From: Candidatus Bathyarchaeota archaeon
Lineage (GTDB): Archaea; Thermoproteota; Bathyarchaeia; Bathyarchaeales; Bathycorpusculaceae
Direction: 5' to 3'
NCBI GenBank assembly: GCA_963811105.1
Contig: CAWEPZ010000002.1
Span: 128,001 to 192,000, forward strand
DNA: 64,000 bases
Below are positions 1 to 23,029 of the stretch, piece after piece. Positions within the stretch are counted from its first letter, which is position 1. Every line of letters begins with the position of its first letter. A program made the translations under genes and the position numbers. Under the pieces are notes generated by a model that had not been told where the DNA came from, did no database searches, and saw only the letters and a program-made list of their open reading frames with translations.

Positions 1-1036
1 CTTTGGGTCCTTGACACTGTAACCCCACCCGGGCCAATTGTGGTGCAGTTGTAAGTATGGTTGTTTTACAGCCCTTCGACATTCGTGCTAGTAGGTACCG
101 CATGAGCTTTTCCCGCTCTTCCGGTGATAGGTCCTCTTCGTAATGTGATTTGCCTCTGCCTGCTGGAACAAAATTGAAATTGGTGAATCTTTCTGCGCCT
201 ATCTCCTCAGCTAAATCTATTATTGCTGGCATTTCTTCAAGGTTACTTTTCGTAGCTGTGGTAGCTATGCAGACACATAAATCAGCTTCTACACAATTCT
301 TCAAGCCAGCCACTGCTTGATCAAACGCGCCCCGTACACCACGGAATTCATCGTGCGTTTTGGCGGATGCCCCATCGATGCTAATGTCTAAGTAGTTTAC
401 TCCAGCTTGCTTGAGCTTCTCAACGTTTTCCTTGGTCAGCAGGGTACCGTTTGTAGCAACTGAAATGTAGAGTCCACGGTCTGCTGCGTGTCGTGCAACT
501 TGGAAGAAGTCTTCCCTGGTGAGGGGTTCGCCGCCCGAGAATGCAAGCGCCGTTAATCCAGCATCTGCAAGCTGGTCCACTACTGCCAGCGCTTCCTGGG
601 TTGTAAGTTCCTTTTCTTTGACGGCGCCGCTGTTTGAGTAGCAATGTTTGCAGTTCAAATTGCATTTATGCGTAAAATCCCAAACAATCAAAAACGGAGC
701 ATAAAGAGAAATGGGTTTCTTGATTCCCATGTAAGCAAAACTTTTGGTTAAATTCATTACTGCTCGCCGAGCGTAGGGGTCAGCTAAGAGTTTCTCAACT
801 TTTTCCCGTTTAAGGTTTAAACTGCGCCTTAAGAATTCAAGCCAGAACCCAATGATCTGAGAGTAAAGAGGACTACATTTCTCGCAGTTCAGCTTGGTTT
901 TCCCTGTGTAATTGTCTAATGCTGCTTCAAGAACAGTTCTGCCGCAGGCGGGGCATTTTTTGAGTGATAGCAGAAGCATTTTCTTTGTCATAGGCAACTT
1001 TATAACTGCATTCCAGAAGCTATCGTAACTAAGCAT
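1..1036 (-). CDS. Radical SAM (probably SPASM-type) protein, 3'-truncated by the window edge; candidate GMGT synthase (Gms)-family enzyme
   Basis: Not in the ORF track; translated by hand from ATG at 1036: MLSYDSFWNAV...CPACG...CEKC...APFLIVWDFTHKCNLNCKHCY...FSGGEPL...VATNG...ISIDG...HDEFRG...FNFVPAGRG...DLSPEERE...LTTAPQLARV. It has a CxxxCxxC motif plus an N-terminal CxxC pair, and GGAGG lies upstream. Confidence 0.85.
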   Translation of the reverse strand, partial: MLSYDSFWNAVIKLPMTKKMLLLSLKKCPACGRTVLEAALDNYTGKTKLNCEKCSPLYSQIIGFWLEFLRRSLNLKREKVEKLLADPYARRAVMNLTKSFAYMGIKKPISLYAPFLIVWDFTHKCNLNCKHCYSNSGAVKEKELTTQEALAVVDQLADAGLTALAFSGGEPLTREDFFQVARHAADRGLYISVATNGTLLTKENVEKLKQAGVNYLDISIDGASAKTHDEFRGVRGAFDQAVAGLKNCVEADLCVCIATTATKSNLEEMPAIIDLAEEIGAERFTNFNFVPAGRGKSHYEEDLSPEEREKLMRYLLARMSKGCKTTILTTAPQLARVGLQCQGPK

Positions 1037-1124
1037 GCTCAACCAAATTGCCCTCCTGACATAGTAACAGGTGTAGAGTAGGTTGTCTGATAATGTTAAG
1101 TATTTCTCTTAAACGCCTTAATGA

Positions 1125-1757
1125 CTAATCGATGTTCATTTTGAGGCGTTGTTTCATTGTCTCGTCTGCAATCTCTAAATCCTTAATAGTGTTAATGTTG
1201 AGGAGCACTTCAACTTCTTTTGTAATAATGGCGCATGTTTCAATTTTGCCTTCTTCTTGGATTCTGGCTCCGTTAATTATGTTGACCCCTGAAACAGCAT
1301 ACCACACGCCCCTGTACTCATCAGTAGAGTCAACGGACAATCCTAAGCCCTCCCGCGTTTCGATGGGCACAAAAACCGCAAAGAAATCTTTACCGCAAAC
1401 TTCAAACTGGCTGATGATTCTATCGAGGAATTTGCCTGTAACAGCTGGGGAATCAGCTGGAATCGTCAATACGGGACCCATCAAATTGGCTTGGCGAACC
1501 GCCTGTTTCAAGTCATCATGATAGCCTTTTGCGTCAGTGTGTAGCACTTTCCATCCTTTGTTTTGGCAATGCTTCTCTGTTTCAGGCGTGTTGCCACTGG
1601 TTACAACATAAAAGTCTGAAATCTTTTGTGCGCAGACAACTGCTTCCGTGACCCAATCAATCAGTGGTTTACTTTGAAGAGGCAAAAGCGGTTTCTCAAC
1701 TGGCAAACCAATACGTTTTCCTTTTCCGCCAGCCATAATCAAAGCGGGAACATTCAT
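1125..1757 (-). CDS. cobY: CobY/MobA-like NTP transferase (adenosylcobinamide-phosphate guanylyltransferase family), paralog 1
   Basis: MAGGKGKR...EKPL motif, ADSP, C-terminal NINT; overlaps the cobS-like gene by 4 bp. Confidence 0.75.
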   Translation of the reverse strand: MNVPALIMAGGKGKRIGLPVEKPLLPLQSKPLIDWVTEAVVCAQKISDFYVVTSGNTPETEKHCQNKGWKVLHTDAKGYHDDLKQAVRQANLMGPVLTIPADSPAVTGKFLDRIISQFEVCGKDFFAVFVPIETREGLGLSVDSTDEYRGVWYAVSGVNIINGARIQEEGKIETCAIITKEVEVLLNINTIKDLEIADETMKQRLKMNID

Positions 1758-2584
1758 AGTAACATCAACACGCCTGCAAGCAAAATAAGCGTAGTTGCCC
1801 TGGCCACTTCATTTGTTGCTCCAATCGTGTCGCCTGAAACTCCTCCAAAAGCATTGTTCGAAACTTTTAACATAAGAAATGCCACTGGAATACTGACCAA
1901 TGTTAACGCCACACCGATTAAGCCTAAGAATGGATTAAGCGTTAATGCAAAAAATGGGTAAGCAATTAAGATCGAAAGCAGATAGGCGACTATGTTTAGT
2001 TTCTTTTTGGCTTTCGCCAGGAAAATTGAGCCTAACCCTTTATGTGTAGGTTTCCCAACCCAGACAATTGTGACCATAGCTAATTTTGCTGAAACTTCAG
2101 CGGCTATAATTGCTCCGAAGGCAAAAAGCGGGTTAATCAAAAACAAGCCTGCGAAAGCGGTAAACTCCACAATCATCGCAAGGAGCGCCCCCCAGTAAGT
2201 GACCGTCCAAGCGTGCGCAACGGTTTTTCGGTCATGCAGATTTCTCAAGCCAAATGTGTTGCCTAAATCGATTAAGCCGTCGAAGTGTTGAAGCCCAGTT
2301 AAAACCAGCAGGAATGCCACCGTCATCGCAGAAACCGCGAGCTTAGATAGGAAATCTGTTGGCAGGGTAATGAATTGATTAGCTAGACCAAGCAATAAAT
2401 GAAGGATGTAGTTTGCGCCTAAAAAGTAGCCTGCCGCAAGTACGCCTATGAAGCCGCCGATAAGCGGAAACAGGTACATATGCTCGGCGGTGTTGAAAAT
2501 ATAATCTTCCCCTCCGCAAACAGGAATGATGGTTAGGAAAGATAGCAAATCCCTAAAAGTTTTTATAGTTTTCACAGGCGACAT
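1754..2584 (-). CDS. cobS: CobS-like membrane protein (adenosylcobinamide-GDP ribazoletransferase family), divergent paralog 1
   Basis: FLTIIP, FPLIG, LTGLQHFDGLID, GLGSIF, FGGVSGDTIGATNE motifs. Confidence 0.8.
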   Translation of the reverse strand: MSPVKTIKTFRDLLSFLTIIPVCGGEDYIFNTAEHMYLFPLIGGFIGVLAAGYFLGANYILHLLLGLANQFITLPTDFLSKLAVSAMTVAFLLVLTGLQHFDGLIDLGNTFGLRNLHDRKTVAHAWTVTYWGALLAMIVEFTAFAGLFLINPLFAFGAIIAAEVSAKLAMVTIVWVGKPTHKGLGSIFLAKAKKKLNIVAYLLSILIAYPFFALTLNPFLGLIGVALTLVSIPVAFLMLKVSNNAFGGVSGDTIGATNEVARATTLILLAGVLMLL

Positions 2585-2622
2585 ATACCCTAAACTACCT
2601 GAAACAGAATATAGGCTTTGTC

Positions 2623-3567
2623 GTGGATTATATGGGGGAATTACAGGGAAAAAAAATAGTAGTTACTGGTGGCGCAGGTTTCATCGGCTATCATCTGTGC
2701 AAAAGGCTGTCGGATTTAGTATCTGACTTGATAATATACGATAACTTATCAAGCGGCACCATGCAAAACGTGAAAGATGTTCCCAAAGTAAAATTGGTAA
2801 AGGGAGACATTTTAGACCTCAAAAAAATGCTTTCACTAGATAAGGCTGATTTAATTTATCATTTAGCTGCTCAGGTTGTTGTGCCCTATTCGATGGAAAA
2901 TCCTCTTATTGATTTTGAAACAAACGCTAAGGGGACCGTGCAGGTTCTTGAGAAAGCGCGCAAAGATGATGCTAAACTGGTTTTCGCCTCCAGCGCTGCC
3001 GTTTACGGTAACCCAACCGTTTTTCCAACTCCTGAGAGTTATGGTTTTCACCCCTTCTCATGCTACGGTTTATCCAAAGTTGTGGGTGAAGAATATTGTG
3101 ACATGTACAAGAGCCAGTATGGTTTAGACGTCACAATAATGCGGTTTGCGAATGTTTACGGGTTAAGATGCCACGGAGTCATCCACGACTTCTTAGACAA
3201 ACTTGCTGCGAACCCAGGTAAACTGGAAATAATCGGCACAGGTTTGCAGTCTAGAGATTTCGTCAATGTGTCTGATGTGGTTGATGCGCTTGTTACTGTC
3301 GGCGCTGAGGATTCTGCTAATGGTAAGGTTTACAATTTAGGGTTTGGAACAACAACAACTATAATTGACCTTGCCAAAATGATGCTGAAAATTCTGGGTT
3401 TAGAAAAGAAGACTTTCATTACAACAACCGGTGTCTCTTGGCAGGGTGATGTCACTAAGATATGGTTTGATAACTCCAAAGCAAAGAAAGAATTGAATTG
3501 GAACCCAAAAATAACTCTTGAAGAAAGTATCAAGGAAGTTATTGCTGCGAGGAAATTCTCGAAATGA
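2623..3567 (+). CDS. NAD-dependent NDP-sugar epimerase/dehydratase (extended SDR)
   Basis: TGGAGFIG, HLAA, ASSAAVYG, YGLSK catalytic motif; alternative start ATG 2632. Confidence 0.92.
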   Translation: MDYMGELQGKKIVVTGGAGFIGYHLCKRLSDLVSDLIIYDNLSSGTMQNVKDVPKVKLVKGDILDLKKMLSLDKADLIYHLAAQVVVPYSMENPLIDFETNAKGTVQVLEKARKDDAKLVFASSAAVYGNPTVFPTPESYGFHPFSCYGLSKVVGEEYCDMYKSQYGLDVTIMRFANVYGLRCHGVIHDFLDKLAANPGKLEIIGTGLQSRDFVNVSDVVDALVTVGAEDSANGKVYNLGFGTTTTIIDLAKMMLKILGLEKKTFITTTGVSWQGDVTKIWFDNSKAKKELNWNPKITLEESIKEVIAARKFSK

Positions 3568-4451
3568 CCCGTCCAGCGCCAGCAAGAGGATTGATCGCTC
3601 TGTTGCGTCTTCCCTACTGGCTGATGACTGGCGGTTTATCGCTTCTAACAGCTTTTGCCATCTCAAAAAATCCCCTCAACCTCAGCATACCTACTCTTGT
3701 GTTGATTTTCTTCTCCATGGCACTTATCACTTCAGCAGGCTTCGCAATCAACGACTACTTTGATAGAGAAAGCGACGCGGTAATCAAACCAAAACGTCCT
3801 ATCCCTTCAGGTGCCCTTTCACTTAAGCAAGTGATCACTATTTCTGGCGTGCTTTTCTCTGTAGGCTTGGTTATGGCTGCTTACATTAATTGGCTAAGCT
3901 TTGCAATTATCGCTGTGGATTCTGTATTGCTTTTGATCTATTCAATTCTTGTTAAGCGCAAATCTGGTTTTGTCGCTAACGTTTTGATTGGCATTTTAAC
4001 TGGAACTGCTTTTCTGTTTGGAGAAGCAACCATCTCCGTCCCTCCAACAATAAGCTTGATTTCCCTAAGTCTATACCCAATAGCTTTCGGAACAATCGGC
4101 GGCAACATCCTGCGCGATGTTCTTAGCCTTGAAGGCGATCAAAAAGTTAGTTATCCAACACTTCCCCAAAAAATCGGCATCACTGGTTCAACCAAAGCAG
4201 CTGCGGTTTTCTTCACATTAACCGGTGTGCTTGCGCCTCTTCCCATCTTCATAGGCAACTTTGGTATTTACTACTTGCCCTTCATTCTCTTGTGGAGTGT
4301 TCTACTAGTTTACTGTTCAATACGCCTTGTAACTGCTTCTTCAACGATAGCCAATATTCGGAAATATGAGCGGCTTGTTACTATGTCGATGATTTTGCTT
4401 CCATTAGCATTAATAATTCAGGCGATATCTCGCATACTTGGAGGGGCTTAA
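3564..4451 (+). CDS. UbiA-family prenyltransferase, digeranylgeranylglyceryl-phosphate (DGGGP) synthase type
   Basis: INDYFDRESDAVIKPKRPIPSG and LRDVLSLEGD...PTLP Asp-rich motifs, multiple TM helices; ATGA overlap with the epimerase. Confidence 0.85.
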   Translation: MTRPAPARGLIALLRLPYWLMTGGLSLLTAFAISKNPLNLSIPTLVLIFFSMALITSAGFAINDYFDRESDAVIKPKRPIPSGALSLKQVITISGVLFSVGLVMAAYINWLSFAIIAVDSVLLLIYSILVKRKSGFVANVLIGILTGTAFLFGEATISVPPTISLISLSLYPIAFGTIGGNILRDVLSLEGDQKVSYPTLPQKIGITGSTKAAAVFFTLTGVLAPLPIFIGNFGIYYLPFILLWSVLLVYCSIRLVTASSTIANIRKYERLVTMSMILLPLALIIQAISRILGGA

Positions 4452-5919
4452 CGTAAGCAAAACAAAGAGTGTCTGTCCTGAATGCCAGAAAAAAATCGAT
4501 GCCCAATTAACGCAGGCTAACGGAAAAATCAAAATTACCAAGCAATGCCTCGAACACGGCGATTTTGAAGCTACGCATTGGCAAAGCCTAAGCGTATACA
4601 ATCACATGCAAACCTACGACACCTTCCAGTATCTTGGTGACTTGAATGCACCAAAAGACCCCGAAGGCTGCCCCTACGTCTGCGAAACCTGCAACAATCA
4701 TGCTTCAGGCACGGTCATAGGCGTTATTGACGTAACTAAACGTTGCAACTTCAAATGTGCAGTTTGCTTCTCGACTTTTCCTCAGCAAGAAGTCGATTAT
4801 GAACCCACCAAAGAAGCGCTCATTGACATGCTTGTGTTCGTAAGCAAAGCTAACCCCAAGCCACCAGCAATCTTGTTTTCAGGAGGAGAACCGTTAGAAC
4901 GAGAAGATATGCCTGAAATAATTGGTGCAGCGCACAGACTAAAGTTTATGACTATTTTGGCGACCAATGGAACTCATTTGGTTGACACTCCGGGGCTAGC
5001 GAAGAAGCTTAAAGATAACGGTTTGAACATCGTTTATTTATCGTTTGATAGTTTCCATGAAGAATTCAACAAGAAAGTTAGAGGACGAGAGCTCTTAGAT
5101 ATTAAACTTAACGCTATTGAGGTTTGCCGTAAATACGACATGGAAATCATCTTAGTTAACACGTTGATGAAGAGTTTAAACGATAAAGAAGTCGGCGACA
5201 TGATAAGGTTCGCCGCCAAAAACACCGAGATTGTTCGAGGACTAATTTTCCAGCCCATAGCCTTCACTGGCCGAGCCACCGAAAACCCATTCCGTGAAAA
5301 CTTCCGTGAATGGTCCTTTGCGGAAGACGTTGAAAAACAAACCTTCGGGGAAATAAAAACCAAAGACCTGTTTCCCATGTCAGTTATGACTTCGCCAATT
5401 AAAATAATGCGAAAATTCATGCAAAAACCTTGGCCTCTCTTCTCTTGCAGTCCTCAATGCGGAATTGTAAACTGGGTTTACGTTTCTGAAGACGGCAAAA
5501 TGTTCCCAATCAACCGCTTTGTCAACTTTGACAGGTTCTTTAACTACATTCGAAAAACCGCTGAAAATGCTGAATCAAAAGGAAAATTTTCATTGCTGTC
5601 ATCACTATTCATGGCATCAATGCTTTCAATGAATATGTTCCTAGTCACCAAAGAAGTAGGTATGCTAACCTTGATGAAATCGATTATGCGCATGCATCTT
5701 GCACCATCTTACCAATCGCTGGGAAAAATCCGCAGACGCATCTTCCTCCTTGGCTGCATGGCATTTATGGACTCCTACAACTTCGACGTAAACCGAGTAA
5801 GACGATGCGTTGTGCACTATATCACGCCGAATAAGAAAATCATACCATTCTGCGCCTACAACAACATACACCGAGTCGCAATCGAGAAGCAATTCGGTGA
5901 AAGACAAAAGAAAGCTTAG
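4438..5919 (+). CDS. tes: Tetraether lipid synthase (Tes / GDGT-MAS, MJ0619 family) radical SAM enzyme
   Basis: N-terminal CPEC...CLEHG, GCPYVCETCNNH, radical SAM CNFKCAVC, FQPIAFTGR, FMDSYNFDVNRVRRCVVHY...IIPFCAYN C-terminal signature. Confidence 0.88.
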   Translation: MEGLNVSKTKSVCPECQKKIDAQLTQANGKIKITKQCLEHGDFEATHWQSLSVYNHMQTYDTFQYLGDLNAPKDPEGCPYVCETCNNHASGTVIGVIDVTKRCNFKCAVCFSTFPQQEVDYEPTKEALIDMLVFVSKANPKPPAILFSGGEPLEREDMPEIIGAAHRLKFMTILATNGTHLVDTPGLAKKLKDNGLNIVYLSFDSFHEEFNKKVRGRELLDIKLNAIEVCRKYDMEIILVNTLMKSLNDKEVGDMIRFAAKNTEIVRGLIFQPIAFTGRATENPFRENFREWSFAEDVEKQTFGEIKTKDLFPMSVMTSPIKIMRKFMQKPWPLFSCSPQCGIVNWVYVSEDGKMFPINRFVNFDRFFNYIRKTAENAESKGKFSLLSSLFMASMLSMNMFLVTKEVGMLTLMKSIMRMHLAPSYQSLGKIRRRIFLLGCMAFMDSYNFDVNRVRRCVVHYITPNKKIIPFCAYNNIHRVAIEKQFGERQKKA

Positions 5920-6005
5920 TTAAGAAGCCTTAAACTTGACAACCTTTTTGCTTAGTCTGGTTAGAAAACAGACGCTAACAAGTTGAATTGAAGTATTCTA
6001 TTTTA

Positions 6006-6527
6006 TTAACTGGAAACTTGTATGTTTAAGACGCAGTAGTTATTGGTAAACTCGTAGGTCGATGTGTCAGGGTTTAAGCGCCAGAGTTCAAAAATAACCG
6101 AGTAACTTCCCACCTGATTTTCAGTAATTGTTTGTAAGCTTTGCCAAGATTTCCCGTTCTCCAACGTTATTGTTGTGGTGTTGATAGCTGGGGTATTAAC
6201 TGGTATGGTGGACAGGTTTGGAGTGATTTTAGTTAAGACTTGAAATTGTGTAGTGGCTCCCCTGTGGTTTTCAACGGCTAGCCACACACTAAATGTGCTG
6301 TTGTAGTTAGCCACTAGCGTGGCAGGGTAATTATCAGCGGTTTTCTGGGTGTCGAGGAGGTAAATTGTGCTGTAGCCTTCTGGTTTAGCTGGGAACGCTA
6401 TAAAGTAGACTGCAGCTACTACAGAAACAATAATTAAAACAACAAAGATGGCGATTACGATGCCTTTATCATCGTTTATGCCGATTTTCCTTCCAATGCT
6501 GTTGACACGTTCTAATCGTATTTGCAT
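6006..6527 (-). CDS. DUF1616-like membrane-anchored protein
   Basis: N-terminal TM, then EGYSTIYLL...ADNYP...VENHRG; beta-rich extracellular domain. Confidence 0.6.
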   Translation of the reverse strand: MQIRLERVNSIGRKIGINDDKGIVIAIFVVLIIVSVVAAVYFIAFPAKPEGYSTIYLLDTQKTADNYPATLVANYNSTFSVWLAVENHRGATTQFQVLTKITPNLSTIPVNTPAINTTTITLENGKSWQSLQTITENQVGSYSVIFELWRLNPDTSTYEFTNNYCVLNIQVSS

Positions 6528-7230
6528 CTAGAAGCCCCTTAAATATAGTGCTAAATATCTCAATCCCTGACTTAAATGGTTTAAGCTTAGTTTTCCCATA
6601 TTTTCTGGCTTTGTAAGTGGTGGGGATTTCAACCATGTTGTAGCCTTCTTTAGCGAATCCGATAAGCATCTCCGTAGCGTAAGCCATGTCATTCTCTTTT
6701 AACTCTACTCTATCAATGGCATCATGAGATATCGCTCGAAACCCCGATTGGCTGTCACTTAAGAATTGGCTATAGAAGAAGTCAAAAGTAAACGTGATTA
6801 TTTTGTTGCCTATGAAATTTAAAAGGCCCATGGCTTTGTTTGGGTCATACATGCGTGTGGCTAAAACCATGTCGGCGTCTTTCTCAACCATCCGCTCAAT
6901 CATGCGGTTGATGTGCTTTACTTCGTAGGTTCCATCGCCGTCAACCATTACAATGATGTTGCCTTTGGCGTTTTTCATCCCTGTTTTTAGTGCTAAGCCA
7001 TAACCGCGTCTTGGTTCAATTATAAGTCTACAGAAATTTGTATCTTTAACGATTTCTATGGTTCCATCTGTTGAGTTGCTGTCAACAACAATAATTTCTT
7101 TGGGGTAGGCTAACTCTTTCTGGATGGTGGTGACAGCTTCAAGAATGTTTCCTGCTTCATTAAGTGTTGGAATGACTACCGAGACCAAATCCACTTTTGA
7201 CGTCATATGCATACCCCCAATATTTTGCAA
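6469..7230 (-). CDS. Glycosyltransferase family 2 (DPM synthase-like)
   Basis: VSVVIPTLNE, VVDSNSTDGT, GYG, VDGDGT, DSQSGFRA. Confidence 0.92.
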   Translation of the reverse strand: MQNIGGMHMTSKVDLVSVVIPTLNEAGNILEAVTTIQKELAYPKEIIVVDSNSTDGTIEIVKDTNFCRLIIEPRRGYGLALKTGMKNAKGNIIVMVDGDGTYEVKHINRMIERMVEKDADMVLATRMYDPNKAMGLLNFIGNKIITFTFDFFYSQFLSDSQSGFRAISHDAIDRVELKENDMAYATEMLIGFAKEGYNMVEIPTTYKARKYGKTKLKPFKSGIEIFSTIFKGLLDANTIRTCQQHWKENRHKR

Positions 7231-7255
7231 AGGCTATATTGTTTCCGCAACATGG

Positions 7256-8440
7256 TTAAATAAGCTCTTCGTATATCTCGATGAGTGTTTCAACGTTCTT
7301 ATCCCAACTATATTTCTCTTCCATCATCGCTCTAAGCTCTGATTTGCGTGAGCCCCAATCAGCCTCTGAAAACTCCAAAATCGACTCTGCCATCGCCTCA
7401 GGCTTGTTAGGTGCCACAAGTTTCCCAAACCTTTGATTCAAGATTTCGCTTATTCCTCCCACATTTGTTGCTATAACAGGTAATCCGCAAGACATGGCTT
7501 CAAGTGCAACCAAAGGCAAGCCTTCACCAGATTTAGATGGTAACACAAAGAAGTCTGCGGCGTTATAGTAGAACGGTAAATCTTCATCGGTCACAAACCC
7601 AGTGAGCTTAAAGTTGTTTTCTATTCCTAGTTGCTTAGTTTTGATTTGTACGCTGCTTTGGTCTGGTCCTTTTCCAACTACAAGAAAGAAAATGTTTGGT
7701 CTCTTCTTGACTGCGATATTGGCGCCTTCAATTAATGTGTCAATGCCATTTTTGTAAACCAGCCGCCTAACAGTCAGCACCACAGTTGCGTTTTGTGGAA
7801 TTCCAAGTTTTCTGCGCATTTCCTCACGTTTTCCCGCTAGAGGTCTGAAACGAGCCAAATCGACACCGTTACGTAGCACTGTAATCTTGCTTGGTTTTGC
7901 TCCTAAACTTAAAACATAATCTCTGGAAGCGTTACTTACTGCGATTATTTTGTCTGCTTGTTTAAGTGTTTCCTTTCCAACCGCAAGGTCGTTTAACCGT
8001 TCGACTGTATCAAACAAATTGTCGTATTCAATGAAAGTGTTATGCTGTGTTAAAACAAACGGCTTAGAGTACCTTCTCGCAAGTTTGCCGGCAATAAGTG
8101 AGGTTAAGTAAGGGTGACCATGAGCGTGAACTATTTTGCTTGATTTTACCGCCCTAAGAAAAGTCTTAAAGCTGCTTACTGTCGGAATGGGGTAGGGGAT
8201 TCCAAGACTGAATCCAGTGTTAAGCGAAGGATAGCATTCAACGTTGATTCCATCAAGAACATAACGTTTGGGCGTCCCAATCCTGCTGGTTACAACCATG
8301 GGTATAAAATTTCTCTGCAGAAGCCGTGTACTTTGTTCATAAACAACCTTCTCTATTCCGCCAACATGCGGCAGAAAAGTGTGTGTAACAATGCACAGTC
8401 GTGTTTGAACCATGGAAGCCCAACTGCGTAAACTCCTCAA
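7256..8440 (-). CDS. Glycosyltransferase family 4
   Basis: GGIE, NGVD, KNGID, EGLPLVALEAMSCGLPVI. Confidence 0.93.
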   Translation of the reverse strand: MRSLRSWASMVQTRLCIVTHTFLPHVGGIEKVVYEQSTRLLQRNFIPMVVTSRIGTPKRYVLDGINVECYPSLNTGFSLGIPYPIPTVSSFKTFLRAVKSSKIVHAHGHPYLTSLIAGKLARRYSKPFVLTQHNTFIEYDNLFDTVERLNDLAVGKETLKQADKIIAVSNASRDYVLSLGAKPSKITVLRNGVDLARFRPLAGKREEMRRKLGIPQNATVVLTVRRLVYKNGIDTLIEGANIAVKKRPNIFFLVVGKGPDQSSVQIKTKQLGIENNFKLTGFVTDEDLPFYYNAADFFVLPSKSGEGLPLVALEAMSCGLPVIATNVGGISEILNQRFGKLVAPNKPEAMAESILEFSEADWGSRKSELRAMMEEKYSWDKNVETLIEIYEELI

Positions 8441-8618
8441 TCAACATAGTATTATAATCTTATGGAAAAACAAATTTGAACCCAAAAAAGACTAAAAGGT
8501 CTACTTTTAGTTGCCTAAAACATAAAACAAGTAGTTTAGTTCTCCACTACCGTCAATTTAGTGGTAAAGTCATCTACAAATTGATGCTCCTACCCCCATA
8601 ATTGCAGAGGCGGAAGCG

Positions 8619-9110
8619 TTACGGTTTTATTCCTGCCTTTTTTATAGCTTGCGTATATACATTTGAAGATACGCCAGCAACCAAAGCCCCGATAGCATCA
8701 TTTGTCAAAGGAGGCAGCTTCTTTAAAATGCCTGGTTTAGCTTGGTCAAACCGCACAAACTCAAACATGCCTCTTGACCCGCCGATGTAAGTGGCAATCG
8801 CTATCCCGATCAATTCATCAGCCACAAGTCCCGGTCTGCCTAGAAACCGTTCCTTCGTCAATCCGGGAATCAAACCTTTCTCTGCATCCTCTTGAGCACG
8901 GAACGCAGCCACGATAAGTGTGGAAACGTTGACGTCTGTTAAAACATCAAGGAACTCTTCCCTGAGCATTCCCGAGGCTTTTTCCTCGTTTTCTACTCCT
9001 GGGTGAGGCACGTACATTTCAAGAGCCGCATGAATTAGGCTTTTTAGGGAAATATCGCGTTTTTCCAAGTACTCTAGCAACGGGGGCGCTTCTCTACTCA
9101 TGTTGTCCAT
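8619..9110 (-). CDS. cobZ: Archaeal alpha-ribazole-phosphate phosphatase CobZ / PgpA-like protein
   Basis: YVPHPG, DVNV, LVADELIG, IATYIGG, FEFVRFDQAKPGIL, DAIG motifs. Confidence 0.8.
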   Translation of the reverse strand: MDNMSREAPPLLEYLEKRDISLKSLIHAALEMYVPHPGVENEEKASGMLREEFLDVLTDVNVSTLIVAAFRAQEDAEKGLIPGLTKERFLGRPGLVADELIGIAIATYIGGSRGMFEFVRFDQAKPGILKKLPPLTNDAIGALVAGVSSNVYTQAIKKAGIKP

Positions 9111-15944: not shown

Positions 15945-16622
15945 ATGAGAGTTATTACTTCATGGAGTGGCGGCAAAGACAGCTGCTACGCATACTATTT
16001 AGCGAGCCAGCAAGGCCATCAGGTAATGAACCTTTTAACCATGATGATGAATAAAACCAAATCAAACTTCCATATGATACCTTCCGGTATACTTGATGCA
16101 CAAGCAGACGCTATAGGAATCCCCCTGATTAGACAGCAGGCTACACCCCAAACCTACGAGAGCGACTTCAAAGAGGCATTGTTAAAGCTGAAAGCTAGAG
16201 GAGCCGAAGGATTAGTCACTGGAGACATCTACGAAGTGGCAGGACACGAGGAAGGTTGGCTAGCTCGAGTCTGCAAAGAAGTCGGTTTAATACCAGTAAA
16301 ACCTCTATGGATGGGTGACACAAAACAAATTTACCTTGACTACCTAAAAACTGGTTTCAAAGCAACGGTAGTGCGAACTAACTTGGAAAAGTTGGGCATG
16401 GAGTGGCTTGGAAGAGTGCTGGACAGGAAATTCTATGATGATATCATTAAGCTGGGCAATGTCGATGCTTGTGGGGAAGGTGGCGAATACCACACGGTAA
16501 TAACGGATGGGCCGACAATGAAGAAAAAGATTGAAATTCTAGAAACGCAAAAGCACAAGCTAGAAGGTGGCTTCGGATATTTAGAAATCGAAAAATTCGA
16601 AGTGACGCCTAAGGCAAGGTAA
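15945..16622 (+). CDS. Dph6-like PP-loop ATP pyrophosphatase (diphthine-ammonia ligase family)
   Basis: SWSGGKDS, GDI, PLW, DACGEGGEYHT. Confidence 0.88.
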   Translation: MRVITSWSGGKDSCYAYYLASQQGHQVMNLLTMMMNKTKSNFHMIPSGILDAQADAIGIPLIRQQATPQTYESDFKEALLKLKARGAEGLVTGDIYEVAGHEEGWLARVCKEVGLIPVKPLWMGDTKQIYLDYLKTGFKATVVRTNLEKLGMEWLGRVLDRKFYDDIIKLGNVDACGEGGEYHTVITDGPTMKKKIEILETQKHKLEGGFGYLEIEKFEVTPKAR

Positions 16623-16631
16623 AACAAAGTA

Positions 16632-17720
16632 ATGGATGTAATAATTGCACATAACGAGTTAAAAGCCAAAGATTTCTTGAAAGAAATTGAGGGCAAGAAA
16701 CCCCTTTTCATCTGCACTATAGCCACTACGGAAACCGGCAAAATTCCAGGATTATCCGCGGCTGGCGCAAACCCAGACTTCACAGATTTCACTCCTCCGG
16801 CAGATGCAGAACTCTTGCTATTGGGTAAATGCAAATCTATTCAAGGAGTTCCTATTACTCCAGACGGCATTCCGACACCTGGCTTGATTACGATGTCCGC
16901 TCTGCATCTTGCTGATATTCCATTGCTGGTTGTGAACGGCGGCGTGAAGGTTAAACCCCAGATTCCCTATGTTGATGTAGGTGGTAATTCAGGACGCGAT
17001 ATTCGCACAGGTAATTCTGTTGATAACGTGGAAGAAGTAATTGAACGCGCAAAAGTTTTAGGTGAACAACTGGCGAAAGCGTCGGATTATCTTGTTATAG
17101 GCGAGAGTATTCCAGGAGGCACCACAACAGCGCTTGGCGTTTTGTCGGCGTTAGGCGTTAATGCGGAAGGTAAAGTCAGTAGTACTCTACCAGAAAATCC
17201 TCACAGCCTGAAGAGTGCGGTTGTTCGAGCTGGCCTGAGGGCGGCCGGCGAAAAATTTGGAAGTCTTTCGAATAACCCAATTAAAGCTGTCTCCTGTGTA
17301 GGTGATCCAATGATGCCAGCGTTGGCTGGATTAGTTATTGGAGGAGCTAGGCAGGCGCCTGTTTTGATGGCTGGCGGAACCCAAATGACCGCGGTTTTAG
17401 CATTGATTAACACTTTGGAACGCAAGGCTCTATGCAATGTGGCTTTAGGCACGACACGGTGGGTGGTCAAAGACAAGTCATCAGATATTTGTGGGATAGT
17501 CAAGCAGTTCTGCGAAGTACCCGTTTTAGCGGCTGACTTAGATTTTGGTCCTTCCAGATATCCAGGTTTACGTATTTATGAGACTGGTCTTGTGAAGGAG
17601 GGCGTCGGTGCAGGTGGCGCTTCTATTGCAGCGATGGCTAAGCTGGGCGGTGCAGTAACAAAAGACTTATTGCTCAAGGAGATAGAGCGTAATTATGCTC
17701 TATTGATGGGTTTGAAGTAA
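16632..17720 (+). CDS. cobT: Archaeal CobT, NaMN-dependent phosphoribosyltransferase
   Basis: IPGLSAAG, TPPADAE, GESIPGGTTTA, AGGTQM, VKEGVGAGG. Confidence 0.9.
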   Translation: MDVIIAHNELKAKDFLKEIEGKKPLFICTIATTETGKIPGLSAAGANPDFTDFTPPADAELLLLGKCKSIQGVPITPDGIPTPGLITMSALHLADIPLLVVNGGVKVKPQIPYVDVGGNSGRDIRTGNSVDNVEEVIERAKVLGEQLAKASDYLVIGESIPGGTTTALGVLSALGVNAEGKVSSTLPENPHSLKSAVVRAGLRAAGEKFGSLSNNPIKAVSCVGDPMMPALAGLVIGGARQAPVLMAGGTQMTAVLALINTLERKALCNVALGTTRWVVKDKSSDICGIVKQFCEVPVLAADLDFGPSRYPGLRIYETGLVKEGVGAGGASIAAMAKLGGAVTKDLLLKEIERNYALLMGLK

Positions 17721-17722
17721 GC

Positions 17723-18477
17723 ATGGTTATTAAGCAGCTAAAAAACCTCTTGTCTTTCCTAACAATCTTTCCCATTGCTATGGACAAAGACCTGCTCACT
17801 GACTGTGCCAACAACATGTGGATTTTTCCCTTAATTGGCGCATTTATCGGTTTATTGGCTGGCGTGTTCGGTTGGTGGCTTTCCAGTTTTTGCCCGGCAT
17901 AGTTGTAGGCGCCATTGTGTTGGCTTTGCTGTTGTTGATTACTGGGCTTCACCACACCGACGGATTACTGGATTTTGGTGACGGCATCATGGCACACGGT
18001 ACACCTGAACACAAAATTGAAGTCATGCACGATCAATTAACAGGCGCAGGCGGCTTAGTCTTAGGCATGATGACCCTGTTCATTTCAGCTTTAGCTATTG
18101 GCCAACTTCATAGCAGCATAATAATTCAAAGCATAATTGTTGTTGAAGCTTCAGCTAAACTCTCGATGGTGGTGGCCGCTCGGGCTGGCAAATCAGTTCA
18201 TGAAGGCATGAACTCCCCGTTCCTCGAAGCTATGCGCAGTGGCAAAGGAGATTTTCGGTTAATCGTTTCAGTTCTGATTTCTTTTGCTTTAGCTTTGCCT
18301 CTGCTGCATTTGGCAGGTGCCTTCGTAGTTCTAGCCAGTATAGTTATGGGTTTAGTCATGGTTGCAATTGCGCACAGACACTTCAACGGAGTGACAGGTG
18401 ACGTTTTTGGCGCGACTAACGAGTTAACACGGATGATTTGCGTTATTGTGTTGTTGGCGGTGGTTGCATGGGTATAA
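17723..18477 (+). CDS. cobS: Cobamide synthase CobS (canonical paralog 2), with a 1-nt frameshift near 17872-17876
   Basis: ATG 17723 gives MVIKQLKNLLSFLTIFP...FPLIGAFIGLLAGVFGW; continues in another frame as VAFQFLPG...HHTDGLLDFGDG...MHDQLTG...FNGVTGDVFGATNE. Confidence 0.85.
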
Positions 18478-19085
18478 CAGCGCTTGTGATGGCTGGAGGA
18501 AAAGGAACCCGTATGCAATTAGCAGAAGAGAAGCCGTTGATTAATGTATGCGGCAAACCAGCAATCGAATACGTTATCGCCGCCCTAAAAAGAGCTAAAA
18601 AAATTGACTCAATCTTTGTCGCCACAACCAGCTGCACGCCTAAAACTGCTAAGCTTATGACACAATTCCCAGTCAAATTAATTCAAACGCCTGGAAATAA
18701 TTACGTTTCTGACATGGGATACGCCGCACAAAACCTCAGACTGGGGGTTTTTCTAGCCATAGCCGCTGATTTGCCGCTGGTCACGTCCAAAGCTTTGGAC
18801 ACAATCGTTGAACGCTACGAGCACTGCGGCAAACCTGCTCTAACTGTAGCCGTTCCGTTGGTAACCAAAACTAAGCTTGGTATGAGCGTTGAGTACAAGT
18901 TCAAAATGGATGACCGTGATGTGGTTCCAACAGGCATCAATGTAATTGACGGGCACAAACGCTACGGTGACGAATGGCTCGACCAAGATATTTTCCTGTT
19001 TGATTTGGAAGAGTTAGCTGTAAACGTTAACACAATAGAAGAATTGCAGCTAGCAGAACGTTTACTAGTTAAGAAACAAAATTAA
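18468..19085 (+). CDS. cobY: CobY adenosylcobinamide-phosphate guanylyltransferase (paralog 2)
   Basis: MAGGKGTRM...EKPL, ADLP, GINVI, NVNT; lies in the cobT-cobS operon. Confidence 0.85.
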   Translation: MGITALVMAGGKGTRMQLAEEKPLINVCGKPAIEYVIAALKRAKKIDSIFVATTSCTPKTAKLMTQFPVKLIQTPGNNYVSDMGYAAQNLRLGVFLAIAADLPLVTSKALDTIVERYEHCGKPALTVAVPLVTKTKLGMSVEYKFKMDDRDVVPTGINVIDGHKRYGDEWLDQDIFLFDLEELAVNVNTIEELQLAERLLVKKQN

Positions 19086-20574: not shown

Positions 20575-21357
20575 TTACAGTAGCTGAACTATGGTTGGAA
20601 CATGCACAAAAACATAGACATAAACAGCTGTTGCTAAAATGCCGACAATTATTGCTAATAAAGCGTAGTCTCCGCGGTGAAGTTTCAATGCATAAAGATT
20701 AGTACGTTTCTTCGTGGCTCCCCATGCTCGGGACTCCATTGCTTCTGCCAACTCTAAGCTTCGGCGAATAGCACTCACAATCAAAGGAATCAGCACAGGC
20801 ACGTAATTCCTAATTCTCTTGAATATGCCCCCTTTTTCAAGCTCTAATCCTCGTGCTTTTTGTGCATCCATTATTGTCTGGGCTTCTTCCGCCAGTACAG
20901 GGACAAATCGCACGGCGGTGGTGAAGGCGAAGGCGAATTCGTATGGCACACGTGATTCTTCAAGTGCGAGGCCTAAATGGTCGGGTGAAGTGGTCAGGAA
21001 GAAAACGCTGAAAGATTCAACTAGCACCACAAAACGTAGCGTCAGAGCAACGGCGCTCTCTATACTAGCTGCTGTCAAAGTGTATCCTAAAGTGAAGTAG
21101 GTTGTTGCAACGTTAACCACAAAAATGAATGCTGCTAGAAAAGCTGCCCCTCGCAAGGATCGCAGCCACTGCCTTTGAACACGGGCCAACAAAACAAACG
21201 GAATCTGCATGCCGAACAGGATAAGCAAGGGAATAATTTGGATGAAGGTGATGGCGACTACGAATATGGCGATGACATAAGCGAATTTTATTCTAGGGTC
21301 TAGATTATGGATTGGAGAGTATACTTTCCTGAACTTTAAGCCGTCGAAAACACTCAT
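20575..21357 (-). CDS. ecfT: ECF transporter transmembrane T component
   Basis: LDPR, RFVP, AQKARG, AMESR motifs. Confidence 0.93.
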   Translation of the reverse strand: MSVFDGLKFRKVYSPIHNLDPRIKFAYVIAIFVVAITFIQIIPLLILFGMQIPFVLLARVQRQWLRSLRGAAFLAAFIFVVNVATTYFTLGYTLTAASIESAVALTLRFVVLVESFSVFFLTTSPDHLGLALEESRVPYEFAFAFTTAVRFVPVLAEEAQTIMDAQKARGLELEKGGIFKRIRNYVPVLIPLIVSAIRRSLELAEAMESRAWGATKKRTNLYALKLHRGDYALLAIIVGILATAVYVYVFVHVPTIVQLL

Positions 21358-22184
21358 ATTCGCATTTTACTCTCCTTAGACTTTAGGATTATTTGTTTGG
21401 CTTCGTAGATATCGATGATGTTTTTTGGAAAGCCAAGCTCTGAGAGTTTGGTAAAAACTTGGGCTATCTGCGGCAACACAATAGAAGATAGCTCCAGAAG
21501 TGCAGGGTTAGTTAGAATATCTTTTCCGATACCGTCGGCTACAAGTTTGCCTTCCTTCATCAAAATAACTCTTGGATTACATTCAGCCACAAACTCAACA
21601 TCGTGTGTGACAATTACAACGGTTTTCTGCTGCGTTTGCATCTGCAAAATGAATTGGCGCAACCTCTCTTTCTGTGCATGGTCTTGCCCGATTGTGGGTT
21701 CATCTAAAATCAAGGTTTTCGGATCCCAAGCTAAAACGGAAGCCAACGCCACACGTTTCCGCTCGCCTCCGCTTAGTAGGAAAGGTGAAGTTTTCCTGTA
21801 TTGAGTCAACGATAAAAGGTTCAAAGCCCAAGTTATCCGCTTCTCTATGACCTCTGCTTCAAATCCGAAATTCTTGAGGGCAAAAGCAATTTCGTCTTCA
21901 ACGGTTTCGCTGAATAGTTGGTGGTCTGGGTTCTGGAAAACAAAGCCGACGTTTCGAGCTAAGGCTGCAACACTAGTTTTAGTTGTTTCAACGCCGTCCA
22001 CACGAACTGTGCCGGTTGTGGGCTTGAGTAAGCCGTTGAAGTGTTTGACGAATGTTGATTTTCCCGCGCCGTTTTGCCCCATGATGGCGATGAATTCGCC
22101 GTCTTTTATGATTAGAGAGACGCCTTTGAGAGCTTCCACTTTGTTGGGATAAGAATAATGAATGTCTCGGGCCTCAATCACCAT
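21354..22184 (-). CDS. ecfA: ECF transporter ATPase A'
   Basis: GQNGAGKS, FQNPDHQLF, LSGGE, DEPT. Confidence 0.93.
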   Translation of the reverse strand: MVIEARDIHYSYPNKVEALKGVSLIIKDGEFIAIMGQNGAGKSTFVKHFNGLLKPTTGTVRVDGVETTKTSVAALARNVGFVFQNPDHQLFSETVEDEIAFALKNFGFEAEVIEKRITWALNLLSLTQYRKTSPFLLSGGERKRVALASVLAWDPKTLILDEPTIGQDHAQKERLRQFILQMQTQQKTVVIVTHDVEFVAECNPRVILMKEGKLVADGIGKDILTNPALLELSSIVLPQIAQVFTKLSELGFPKNIIDIYEAKQIILKSKESKMRI

Positions 22185-23029
22185 TATTTGAGCGCCTCTA
22201 AGAGTTGGTCGGCTAACTCTGCTGACGACAATGGTGTCGTGTTCCCAAGGTTTAAGCCCTCTTTCTTTAGCATTTGGTACAGCAATGTTGCTTTGGGAAT
22301 TCCTACACCGACTAAGCGGGTTTCTTCAGAGCTGAGGATTTCCCTTGGGGTTCCTTCAAATCGGACTTTTCCCTCGTCCATAACTATGAGGTGATTAGCA
22401 TATTTTGCTGTCAAATCCAATCTGTGCTCTACAAGAATAACAGTTATTCTTTGCTTTTTGTTTAAATCATAAATTACTTCAAAAATTTTCTCCGCGCTTA
22501 GAGGGTCAAGAAAAGATGTTGGTTCATCTAAAACGATGATTTCTGGCTCCATTGCCAAAACGGACGCTATAGCCACACGTTGCTGTTGTCCGCCTGAGAT
22601 TTCGTGAGGGGAGCGTTCTCGTAAATCGTAAATATCTGTTTGGTTTAATGCCCAATCAACCTTCTTGCGCATTTCGTTTCGAGGAAAACCCATGTTCTCT
22701 AACCCAAAAGCCACGTCCTTCTCAACTGAAAGTGAAAAAAGCTGATTTTCGGGGTTCTGAAATACTAAACCAACATGTTTAGCCATTTCATATGTATGAT
22801 GCTTAAGTGTATCTTCACCTGCAACAGTGATTTCACCTTTCAATTCACCCTGATAGAAATGGGGGACTAGTCCATTGAAGCATCGGCACAAGGTTGTTTT
22901 TCCACAGCCGCTTGGCCCCGTGATTAAAACAAACTCACCCTTCTCAACTTTGATTGAAATGTCTAAAATTGACGGTTTCGCCGCGCCAGGATAAGTGTAG
23001 GTAAGGTTTTTTGTTTCAATGATAGCCAT
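22184..23029 (-). CDS. ecfA: ECF transporter ATPase A
   Basis: GPSGCGKT, FQNPENQL, ISGGQQQR, DEPT. Confidence 0.93.
   Translation of the reverse strand: MAIIETKNLTYTYPGAAKPSILDISIKVEKGEFVLITGPSGCGKTTLCRCFNGLVPHFYQGELKGEITVAGEDTLKHHTYEMAKHVGLVFQNPENQLFSLSVEKDVAFGLENMGFPRNEMRKKVDWALNQTDIYDLRERSPHEISGGQQQRVAIASVLAMEPEIIVLDEPTSFLDPLSAEKIFEVIYDLNKKQRITVILVEHRLDLTAKYANHLIVMDEGKVRFEGTPREILSSEETRLVGVGIPKATLLYQMLKKEGLNLGNTTPLSSAELADQLLEALK

Follow-up and report, generated by a model that had tools for sequence, protein, structure and literature searches.

The subject of this report is a 64,000-nucleotide stretch of DNA from a Bathyarchaeia genome (G000:C2:128001-192000; 3.49 Mb in 15 contigs, 96.65% complete), called the window throughout, and in particular a CobS-family polytopic membrane protein, CobS_L, encoded near its start (1754-2584, minus strand). 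Coordinates with the prefix C2 follow the contig and plain coordinates follow the window, while f1 and f5 denote families and g-numbers denote genera. CobS_L departs from cobamide synthase in its loop 2, forms a clade confined to one order of Bathyarchaeia from soil and peat and is linked throughout that order to paralogs of two tetraether lipid genes. The explanation put forward here, with a likelihood that falls just short of even, is that CobS_L is a repurposed CobS-family membrane phosphotransferase that is tied to a lipid island, is fed by its neighbor CobY and acts on an acceptor other than alpha-ribazole phosphate. Bathyarchaeia, which rank among the most abundant archaea of peat, soil and sediment, are uncultured; their lipids serve as biomarkers, and their lipid pathways have largely been inferred.

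CobS_L passes the Pfam model PF02654 with 92.9 bits against a cut-off of 23.2, covering model positions 2-206 of 207, and falls short of the equivalog model TIGR00317 with 105.4 bits against 110. It is 31% identical to the canonical CobS of the window. In a tree of 150 CobS sequences, CobS_L belongs to a separate paralog clade with an SH-aLRT support of 99% and a stem length of 0.54; the backbone of this tree is a polytomy, and the clade may have arisen by duplication or by transfer. Two CobS genes are present in every carrier examined, one being CobS_L and the other a canonical copy elsewhere in the genome. No CobS structure was found in the PDB, close-relative protein searches with CobS_L gave only near kin under generic names among the matches, and cluster look-ups of deeper CobS_L representatives yielded no informative origin.

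To compare motifs, 42 alignment positions that are at least 75% conserved in 124 canonical CobS sequences were checked in 25 members of the CobS_L clade. The majority of these positions are retained, and those conserved in 100% of the clade include H100, D102, D106, E163, K167, G251, D252, G255, E259 and R262. The GxxGDxxG motif of loop 6 is also retained, with G248, G251, D252 and G255 present in 92-100% of the clade. Loop 2 is changed. Its HxDxxxDxxD motif reads HxDxxxDxxN in all 25 members, at a position (D109) that is Asp in 99% of the canonical proteins. At the end of the loop, in the region of Salmonella Met104, M123 is Ala in 25/25; D125, which is Asp in 97% of canonical CobS, is replaced by Ala, Val or Glu, and the invariant G129 (100% Gly) by Thr, Asn or Ser. 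A pairwise alignment of CobS_L with the canonical CobS of the window is consistent with these changes. According to the passages on loop 2 in PMC8092220, the Salmonella motif 80-HxDxxxDxxD-89 sits in cytoplasmic loop 2, each of the substitutions D82A, D86A and D89A abolished growth on cobinamide plus 5,6-dimethylbenzimidazole, M104A impaired growth at low cobinamide, and the authors proposed that the loop binds adenosylcobinamide-GDP (AdoCbi-GDP). The initial annotation of this DNA had called the CobS-like protein atypical, and the loss of loop-2 residues in the whole set of 25 agrees with a departure from a working cobamide synthase. Judged by its sequence, CobS_L fails two defining features of a cobamide synthase yet is under strong constraint, a combination that favors a changed substrate over decay. 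Provided that loop 2 does bind the corrinoid donor, it may be the donor side that has changed.

The surroundings of CobS_L consist of two divergent units. On the minus strand, CobS_L overlaps by 4 nt with a CobY-like gene (CobY_L, 1125-1757; TIGR00454 118.7 bits, cut-off 174.7; NF045495 99.5 bits, cut-off 250), which is followed by a Gms-like radical SAM gene and a DUF362 gene. The plus-strand unit begins 38 nt from CobS_L, or 47 nt if measured from a conserved ATG, with an NAD-dependent, GalE-like epimerase/dehydratase of the short-chain dehydrogenase/reductase family (2623-3567; PF01370 176.9 bits; GalE model 171 bits vs a cut-off of 262) whose start is probably that conserved ATG at 2632. 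A UbiA-family prenyltransferase that resembles digeranylgeranylglyceryl phosphate (DGGGP) synthase (UbiA_L, 3564-4451; PF01040 118.5 bits) overlaps the epimerase gene by 4 nt, and a Tes-like radical SAM gene (Tes_L, 4438-5919) overlaps that of UbiA_L by 14 nt. The initial annotation had listed these genes apart from DUF362, including the overlapping epimerase-UbiA-tes operon and a divergent gap of less than 50 bp, and every gene that it named is present where it was placed.

This arrangement recurs widely among relatives. Forty-four loci with CobS_L at 61-95% identity were retrieved, and tblastn with the window proteins recovered Tes_L from 41 of them, UbiA_L from 42 and the epimerase from 43. 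The absences are at contig ends, and stricter demands on coverage lower the first count to 40 and leave the other two at 42 and 43. A genome search supplied 20 further loci from more distant genera, in all of which Tes_L (20/20), UbiA_L (20/20) and a CobY beside CobS_L (20/20) were found. The epimerase is present in 15 of these 20, and the five loci that lack it are all of genera g9, g31 and g32. Across the 64 loci, CobS_L and CobY lie within 5 kb of UbiA_L and Tes_L, contig ends excepted. Recurrence in 44 plus 20 further loci is far beyond chance.

Linkage also survives rearrangement, at identities down to 40-46%. In genus g42 of the sister family f5, the proteins are 40-56% identical and the gene order is changed, with the whole set kept within 20 kb. 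The order there is Gms-like and DUF362; three glycosyltransferases of families GT4, GT2 and GT2; a membrane protein and CobD; CobY and CobS_L; then 2-4 kb of other genes, followed by Tes_L, UbiA_L, the epimerase, DUF1616, GT2 and GT4. In G095, a complete g42 genome, the distance from the island is 47 kb to the canonical CobS and 220 kb to CobT. Two of the intervening genes in g42 were considered as island members, namely a HemN-like radical SAM gene, seen in only one of the loci examined (L062 and L066), and a pyridine-nucleotide disulfide oxidoreductase gene, seen in both; they look unrelated and were rejected. A survey of synteny had been proposed as a check on the initial annotation, and it shows the linkage of CobS_L/CobY with UbiA_L/Tes_L kept in every relative that has either unit.

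The distribution of the two marker genes follows the same pattern. Among 401 genomes of the class, a CobS_L-type match occurs in 78, a Tes_L-type match in 76 and both in 75, so that CobS-like and Tes-like proteins co-occur almost perfectly. CobS_L is seen without Tes_L in three genomes (two at contig ends and one fragmented genome), Tes_L without CobS_L in a single fragmented genome, and neither in 322; a canonical-level CobS alone is found in 69. All carriers of CobS_L in this sample belong to families f1 and f5 of one order, and in a separate sample of 401 genomes of the phylum, CobS_L-type matches are again confined to f1 and f5. One locus titled Methanocella sp. MAG113 (L051) has the core of CobS_L, CobY, epimerase, UbiA_L and Tes_L. 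Its CobS_L is nested within the Bathyarchaeia clade, and misbinning looks a better explanation of the locus than transfer does.

The lipid genes of the island are themselves unusual. Tes_L passes the model NF045702 with 454.8 bits against a cut-off of 450 (residues 8-487) and matches the solved structure of the glycerol dialkyl glycerol tetraether (GDGT) macrocyclic synthase, GDGT-MAS (7TOL), from end to end with an E value of 5e-109. The assignment to Tes in the initial annotation is sound to this extent, with the qualification that Tes_L is a second copy: a better Tes of 668 bits is encoded at C2:32648-34069 and is 37% identical to Tes_L. A high-scoring Tes was found in 5/5 genomes checked, and Tes_L only in carriers of the island. 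The same annotation had read UbiA_L as DGGGP synthase, a family call that the scores do not bear out. UbiA_L is below the cut-offs of the DGGGP-synthase-type models (NF009521, 164.2 vs 296 bits; NF009523, 166 vs 269; NF009522, 105.4 vs 353), belongs to a set of five genomic UbiA genes and shares 28% identity with a better DGGGP-synthase-like copy on C9. By these scores and identities, the Tes and UbiA of the window are paralogs, second copies and not the housekeeping ones. A further Tes-family paralog, partial or split and scoring 334-354 bits, is seen in relatives without the island (G150:C1:62752-63696 and G013:C55:22674-24094), and the Tes family comprises several lineages within this archaeal family.

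How CobS_L might act in such surroundings can be outlined as follows. One Bathyarchaeia order would inherit or lose, as a block, a composite island with two sets of genes. The first set would serve tetraether tailoring and glycosylation and consists of the Tes paralog, the DGGGP-synthase-like UbiA paralog, the Gms-like radical SAM protein with DUF362, the epimerase and five glycosyltransferases. The second would combine two late cobamide genes native to the lineage, CobD and CobY, with the lineage-specific CobS_L. The adjacent, translationally coupled CobY would make a GDP-activated phospho-alcohol for CobS_L; because CobS_L and CobY are coupled in this way throughout the order, a supply of CobY's activated product to CobS_L is the simplest reading. 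CobS_L would in turn join the activated group to an acceptor tied to the membrane lipids or glycolipids of the neighboring genes in place of alpha-ribazole phosphate. Two routes are conceivable. CobY may also activate a smaller phospho-alcohol, such as the amino-alcohol phosphate made by CobD, with CobS_L placing the group on a lipid or glycolipid. Alternatively, CobS_L may use AdoCbi-GDP together with a new and possibly lipid-linked acceptor. By either route, the product would be tied to the flanking lipid and glycosyl genes, even where the ordinary cob genes lie elsewhere.

The history of CobY bears directly on this proposal. CobY_L resembles the solved Methanocaldococcus jannaschii CobY (2MZB/3RSB) with an E value of 4e-16 and shares 34% identity with the window's second CobY, which scores 136.5 bits (TIGR00454) and 120.1 bits (NF045495). 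Both are below the CobY cut-offs, which are reached by none of 201 genomes of the order, and the HMM scores of CobY_L across its clade (118-147 bits) indicate no special divergence. In the CobY tree, CobY_L groups with the single-copy CobY of g42 and g9 in a clade that follows the order of the genera, and the "canonical" CobY of the window falls in a separate long-stemmed clade restricted to part of f1. On the evidence of this tree, CobY_L is the vertically inherited CobY of the order and the "canonical" CobY a later addition. Of the atypical pair in the initial annotation, CobS_L belongs to a separate paralog clade and CobY_L is an inherited ortholog. In a group of Bathycorpusculum-type loci (L036, L037, L039, L041-L043, L050 and L052), the CobY beside CobS_L comes from the other CobY clade, with 65-73% identity to the second CobY of the window; the neighbor has been swapped and the adjacency kept, and these genomes still have two CobY genes.

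Several of the observations that weigh against a repurposed CobS_L come from the cobamide genes. They favor a rival explanation that is somewhat unlikely and the best of the alternatives: CobS_L may still be a corrinoid enzyme, serving as a second cobamide synthase for another cobamide (with a different linker, lower ligand or ring), in which case its lipid neighborhood would reflect history, block inheritance or shared regulation, perhaps to supply the cofactor to lipid-modifying radical SAM enzymes that depend on B12. CobS_L is always in an operon with CobY, and all 21 g42 genomes with a match have a single CobY, the one that adjoins CobS_L; the same holds for the g9 genomes G327 and G264. 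These single-CobY genomes also hold CbiB, CobD, CobS and CobT. Likewise, the adjacent island CobD is the sole CobD-type gene in G095, G207 and G327 (283-306 bits). Since CobY and CobD are sole copies in the basal genera, they are B12 genes native to the lineage, and CobS_L alone is consistently in excess. Genomes of g1 have two each of CbiB, CobD, CobY and CobS, which resemble two parallel corrinoid routes and fit a second synthase well. In family f1, the canonical cobT-cobS(-cobY), cobZ and, in g9, cbiB are also inside the island, so that cobamide genes generally, and not CobS_L alone, are neighbors of the lipid genes. Five B12-radical SAM genes and a second CbiB also lie just upstream in the present genome.

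Other points against repurposing concern the counts and the chemistry. Carriers are related and their genes physically linked, and the co-occurrence counts therefore show inheritance as a block and not independent association. Three genomes of g9 have everything and four have neither the island nor any CobS. In g3, g7 and g13, the block of Gms-like, glycosyltransferase and CobD genes is missing within about 9 kb of CobY, which leaves CobS_L, CobY, UbiA_L and Tes_L as the most constant core. The replacement of Asp by Asn in loop 2 is a mild one, and at this position the Salmonella data cover D89A only.

A second synthase, in turn, fits several features less well. The third Asp of HxDxxxDxxD and the Met of loop 2, both of which are needed in Salmonella, are absent from CobS_L. 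CobT and CobZ occur once per genome, also in g1, so that no second route of lower-ligand activation is visible. The g42 genomes have their canonical CobS, CobT and both CbiB genes 14 kb to about 1 Mb away from the island, and CobD-CobY-CobS_L is flanked there on both sides by lipid and glycosyltransferase genes. Finally, the conserved core lipid genes include none that is B12-dependent by its domain content. In this genome, the island CobD scores 258 bits and its partner at C2:323798-324928 scores 300 bits and stands beside CbiB; a hisC gene is separate. Two CbiB genes score 233 and 275 bits (C2:108557-109492 and the C2:322796-324928 region), so that one CobD-CbiB pair is remote from the island and the other CbiB adjoins the row of B12-radical SAM genes.

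Improbable by comparison is the explanation offered by the initial annotation, in which CobY_L and CobS_L form an additional, dedicated pair that stands apart from cobamide synthesis and serves to activate a lipid headgroup or backbone and to attach it. This genome and most of f1 do have two CobY and two CobS genes, the chemistry is formally that of Kennedy-type headgroup transfer and the linkage to Tes_L and UbiA_L holds. The "extra" part of the claim fails on the single-copy genes described above: g42 and g9 have no second CobY or CobD, and there the pair cannot be separated from cobamide synthesis. In addition, CobY_L is the ancestral ortholog and not a derived copy, and it is not especially divergent. 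Equally doubtful is a catalytically dead CobS_L, whether it persists beside CobY as a scaffold in the membrane, a sensor or a regulator or is a duplicate in slow decay. Residues essential in Salmonella CobS are indeed replaced, but almost all of the roughly 78 genomes have an unbroken frame, and many positions are 100% conserved in a clade diverged to 40% identity. The replaced loop-2 positions are themselves fixed (Asn 25/25, Ala 25/25), a pattern that speaks for selection of a new state and against decay.

The repurposed phosphotransferase remains the preferred explanation. Among the neighbors of CobS_L is the second radical SAM protein of the island. Its gene runs off the start of the window, which holds the N-terminal 347 of its 474 residues (2-1042, minus strand; whole gene C2:127618-129042). 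The protein is AhbD/NirJ-like, scoring 309.6 bits against the cut-off of 500 of the AhbD model over residues 118-467, and contains the Pfam domains Radical_SAM and SPASM. As described in the relevant passages of PMC11214058, Gms, the glycerol monoalkyl glycerol tetraether (GMGT) synthase, is a homolog of AhbD lengthened at its N-terminus by about 100 residues (COG4001), is common in Bathyarchaeota and is often encoded in clusters with B12-radical SAM methylases and, in bacteria, with tes. Passages of PMC11186832 describe an N-terminal helical domain followed by radical SAM and SPASM domains. The protein of the window has an N-terminal extension of about 115 residues with an invariant CxxC...CxxC arrangement of four Cys that is kept in 20 orthologs across both families and is absent from all other proteins of the genome. 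COG4001 is presumably the entry named "predicted metal-binding protein". The extension has no Pfam match, and an Atlas search with the N-terminal 118 residues gave only sub-threshold, nameless clusters. No Gms structure was found in the PDB, close-relative protein searches with the radical SAM protein gave only near kin under generic names among the matches, and the accession of an ortholog, MCW4019016.1, is absent from the portions of the supplements of PMC11214058 and PMC11186832 that were covered. From its domain architecture, the second radical SAM protein fits the published description of Gms and is regarded as a Gms-like candidate. In L016, L018, L031, L037 and L041, about 1.2-3.6 kb of inserted DNA lies between CobY and the Gms-like gene.

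Past the window start, the minus-strand unit continues from the radical SAM gene into DUF362. Beyond DUF362 lie a GT4, two GT2, a 184-residue membrane protein, a CobD/HisC-like aminotransferase, a methyltransferase and four B12-binding radical SAM genes, with another B12-radical SAM gene and the second CbiB at C2:107-109 kb. Upstream of the window, C2:107109-121776 (L012:1903-9776) thus holds five B12-binding radical SAM genes and an S-adenosylmethionine-dependent methyltransferase gene in a row. By analogy, these are candidate genes for lipid tailoring of the GDGT/GMGT methylase, ring synthase or desaturase type, as described for Bathyarchaeota in the passages available from PMC11214058 and bioRxiv 10.1101/2025.10.20.683597.

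Between the two divergent units, a conserved block, ACAAAGYCTATAT, occupies 2609-2621 on the minus strand, 25-37 nt 5' of the CobS_L ATG. It was found in 42 of 43 related loci as well as in the window. Its position matches the expectation for the B recognition element and TATA box of a leaderless CobS_L transcript, and from sequence and spacing it may be the promoter element of the CobS_L unit. A single TATA box common to both operons was considered and dropped, since the block is only about 18 nt from the epimerase ATG.

Convergent with the plus-strand epimerase-UbiA_L-Tes_L unit are four minus-strand genes (6006-9110). The first encodes a DUF1616-type membrane protein with one transmembrane segment by hydropathy (6006-6527; PF07760 54.5 bits), and in relatives it stays adjacent to the second, a GT2 glycosyltransferase resembling AglJ and dolichyl-phosphate hexose transferases (6469-7230; PF00535 93.7 bits; TIGR04182 163 bits vs a cut-off of 325). 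The third is a GT4 glycosyltransferase (7256-8440; PF00534 142.6 bits) whose nearest named models are lipid and sugar-phosphate glycosyltransferases, every one below its cut-off. The fourth is a CobZ-like alpha-ribazole phosphatase of the PgpA family (8619-9110; TIGR03161 129.2 bits vs 152.5, model positions 3-139 of 140), the only copy in the genome by tblastn. The initial annotation had counted GT2, GT4 and CobZ together as downstream genes of the cluster, and all three are there. CobZ, as distinct from the glycosyltransferases, accompanies the canonical cob genes and occurs in none of nine g42 island loci; it probably belongs to the ordinary cobamide set, outside the lipid unit.

The canonical block itself, which the initial annotation had described as separate, is present on the plus strand at 16632-19085 with a broken cobS. 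It consists of cobT (16632-17720; 406-418 bits), cobS (17724-18477; 127 bits although truncated) and the second cobY (18438-19085; 136.5 bits). The cobS of this assembly is read in two frames, 17724 to about 17899 and 17818-18477, with the break near 17873-17899 in a T-run. Two of two contigs from other runs that cover the site (X9 and X12, 95-99% alike) have one extra base at 17873/17875, which would restore the frame, and the break probably stems from an error of assembly or from a lesion in the strain. The archaeal DNA topoisomerase I gene, topA, is likewise split into two overlapping open reading frames (60696-61988 and 61813-62802; TIGR01057 489 bits for the N-terminal and 205 bits for the C-terminal part); this second apparent frameshift, in an essential gene, points to indel errors of the assembly. 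Beside the cob block, at 20575-23029, are a CbiQ-like T component of an energy-coupling factor (ECF) transporter and two ECF ATPase genes, possibly an uptake system for cobalt or corrinoids. Two genes for Dph6-like/DUF71 ATP pyrophosphatases are found at 15945-16622, directly 5' of cobT, and at C2:112440-113090. Part of the Dph6-like/DUF71 family is reportedly predicted to have a role in B12 salvage, to judge from the title of one paper (PMC3541065).

A bolder form of the proposal is that CobS_L would be the first CobS-family enzyme with a non-cobamide product; this is unlikely as matters stand. It could take the shape of a GDP-dependent, Kennedy-like route to a lipid headgroup, in which a phospho-amino-alcohol from the CobD product is activated by CobY and placed on a tetraether lipid or glycolipid. 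It could also take that of a membrane-anchored, base-off corrinoid, with adenosylcobinamide-GDP joined to a lipid-linked sugar or alcohol supplied by the UbiA-like and glycosyltransferase genes. To our knowledge, a CobS-family protein with a lipid or glycan substrate has never been shown. The product of CobS_L is probably not ordinary B12, and the dedicated pathway for an unusual tetraether lipid suggested by the initial annotation remains an inference. No literature linking CobS-family genes to tetraether genes, or CobS/CobY to Bathyarchaeia in this context, was found in the searches made, and the passages available from the Gms and Ted papers make no mention of cob genes.

If CobS_L does act outside cobamide synthesis, it would bring a new activity to a family so far credited with only one function, and not every CobS match in a metagenome survey would indicate the capacity to make B12. 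A lipid headgroup or lipid-bound corrinoid as the product would be a new route in archaeal membrane chemistry and a candidate biomarker for the order. Should CobS_L turn out to be a second cobamide synthase, the island would still display an unusual genetic coupling of late B12 steps with tetraether tailoring.

Of the known systems, the closest to CobS_L is CobS itself, as represented by the Salmonella enterica and archaeal proteins (PF02654/TIGR00317). The two share family, size class, polytopic membrane form, the loop-2 H/D/D residues, the loop-6 GxxGDxxG motif and a CobY neighbor. CobS_L differs in its sub-cut-off score (105.4 vs 110), its restriction to a clade of one order, the replacement of the third Asp by Asn and a rewritten end of loop 2 (M-x-D-x3-G), as well as in its constant linkage to Tes-like and UbiA-like genes with a canonical CobS constantly present elsewhere in the genome. 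In Kennedy-type and LicC/LicD-type transfer, a nucleoside triphosphate and a phospho-alcohol yield a nucleoside diphosphate-alcohol, from which a phosphodiester is formed on an acceptor hydroxyl at the membrane. The formal logic is that of CobY and CobS, whereas the protein families are unrelated and CDP is used there and GDP here. With the gms-tes and gms-gmm clusters, as presented in the passages available from Garcia et al. 2024 (PMC11214058) and Li et al. 2024 (PMC11186832), the island shares a radical SAM/SPASM protein that is AhbD-like and extended at its N-terminus by about 100 residues, a nearby tes homolog and, in this genome, B12-radical SAM genes. The Gms-like candidate has 474 residues compared with 526-528 for two Bathyarchaeota homologs in the portion of the Nat Commun supplement covered, and cob genes are unmentioned in those passages on gms clusters. 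UbiA_L resembles DGGGP synthase (NF009521) as a multi-pass membrane protein of the UbiA family whose best named models are of the DGGGP-synthase type, and differs from it by its score (164 vs 296 bits) and by its 28% identity to the better copy. Tes_L, lastly, matches Tes/GDGT-MAS (NF045702; 7TOL) over its full length, including the N-terminal zinc ribbon and the radical SAM core, and differs as the weaker second copy, 37% identical to the 668-bit Tes of the same genome.

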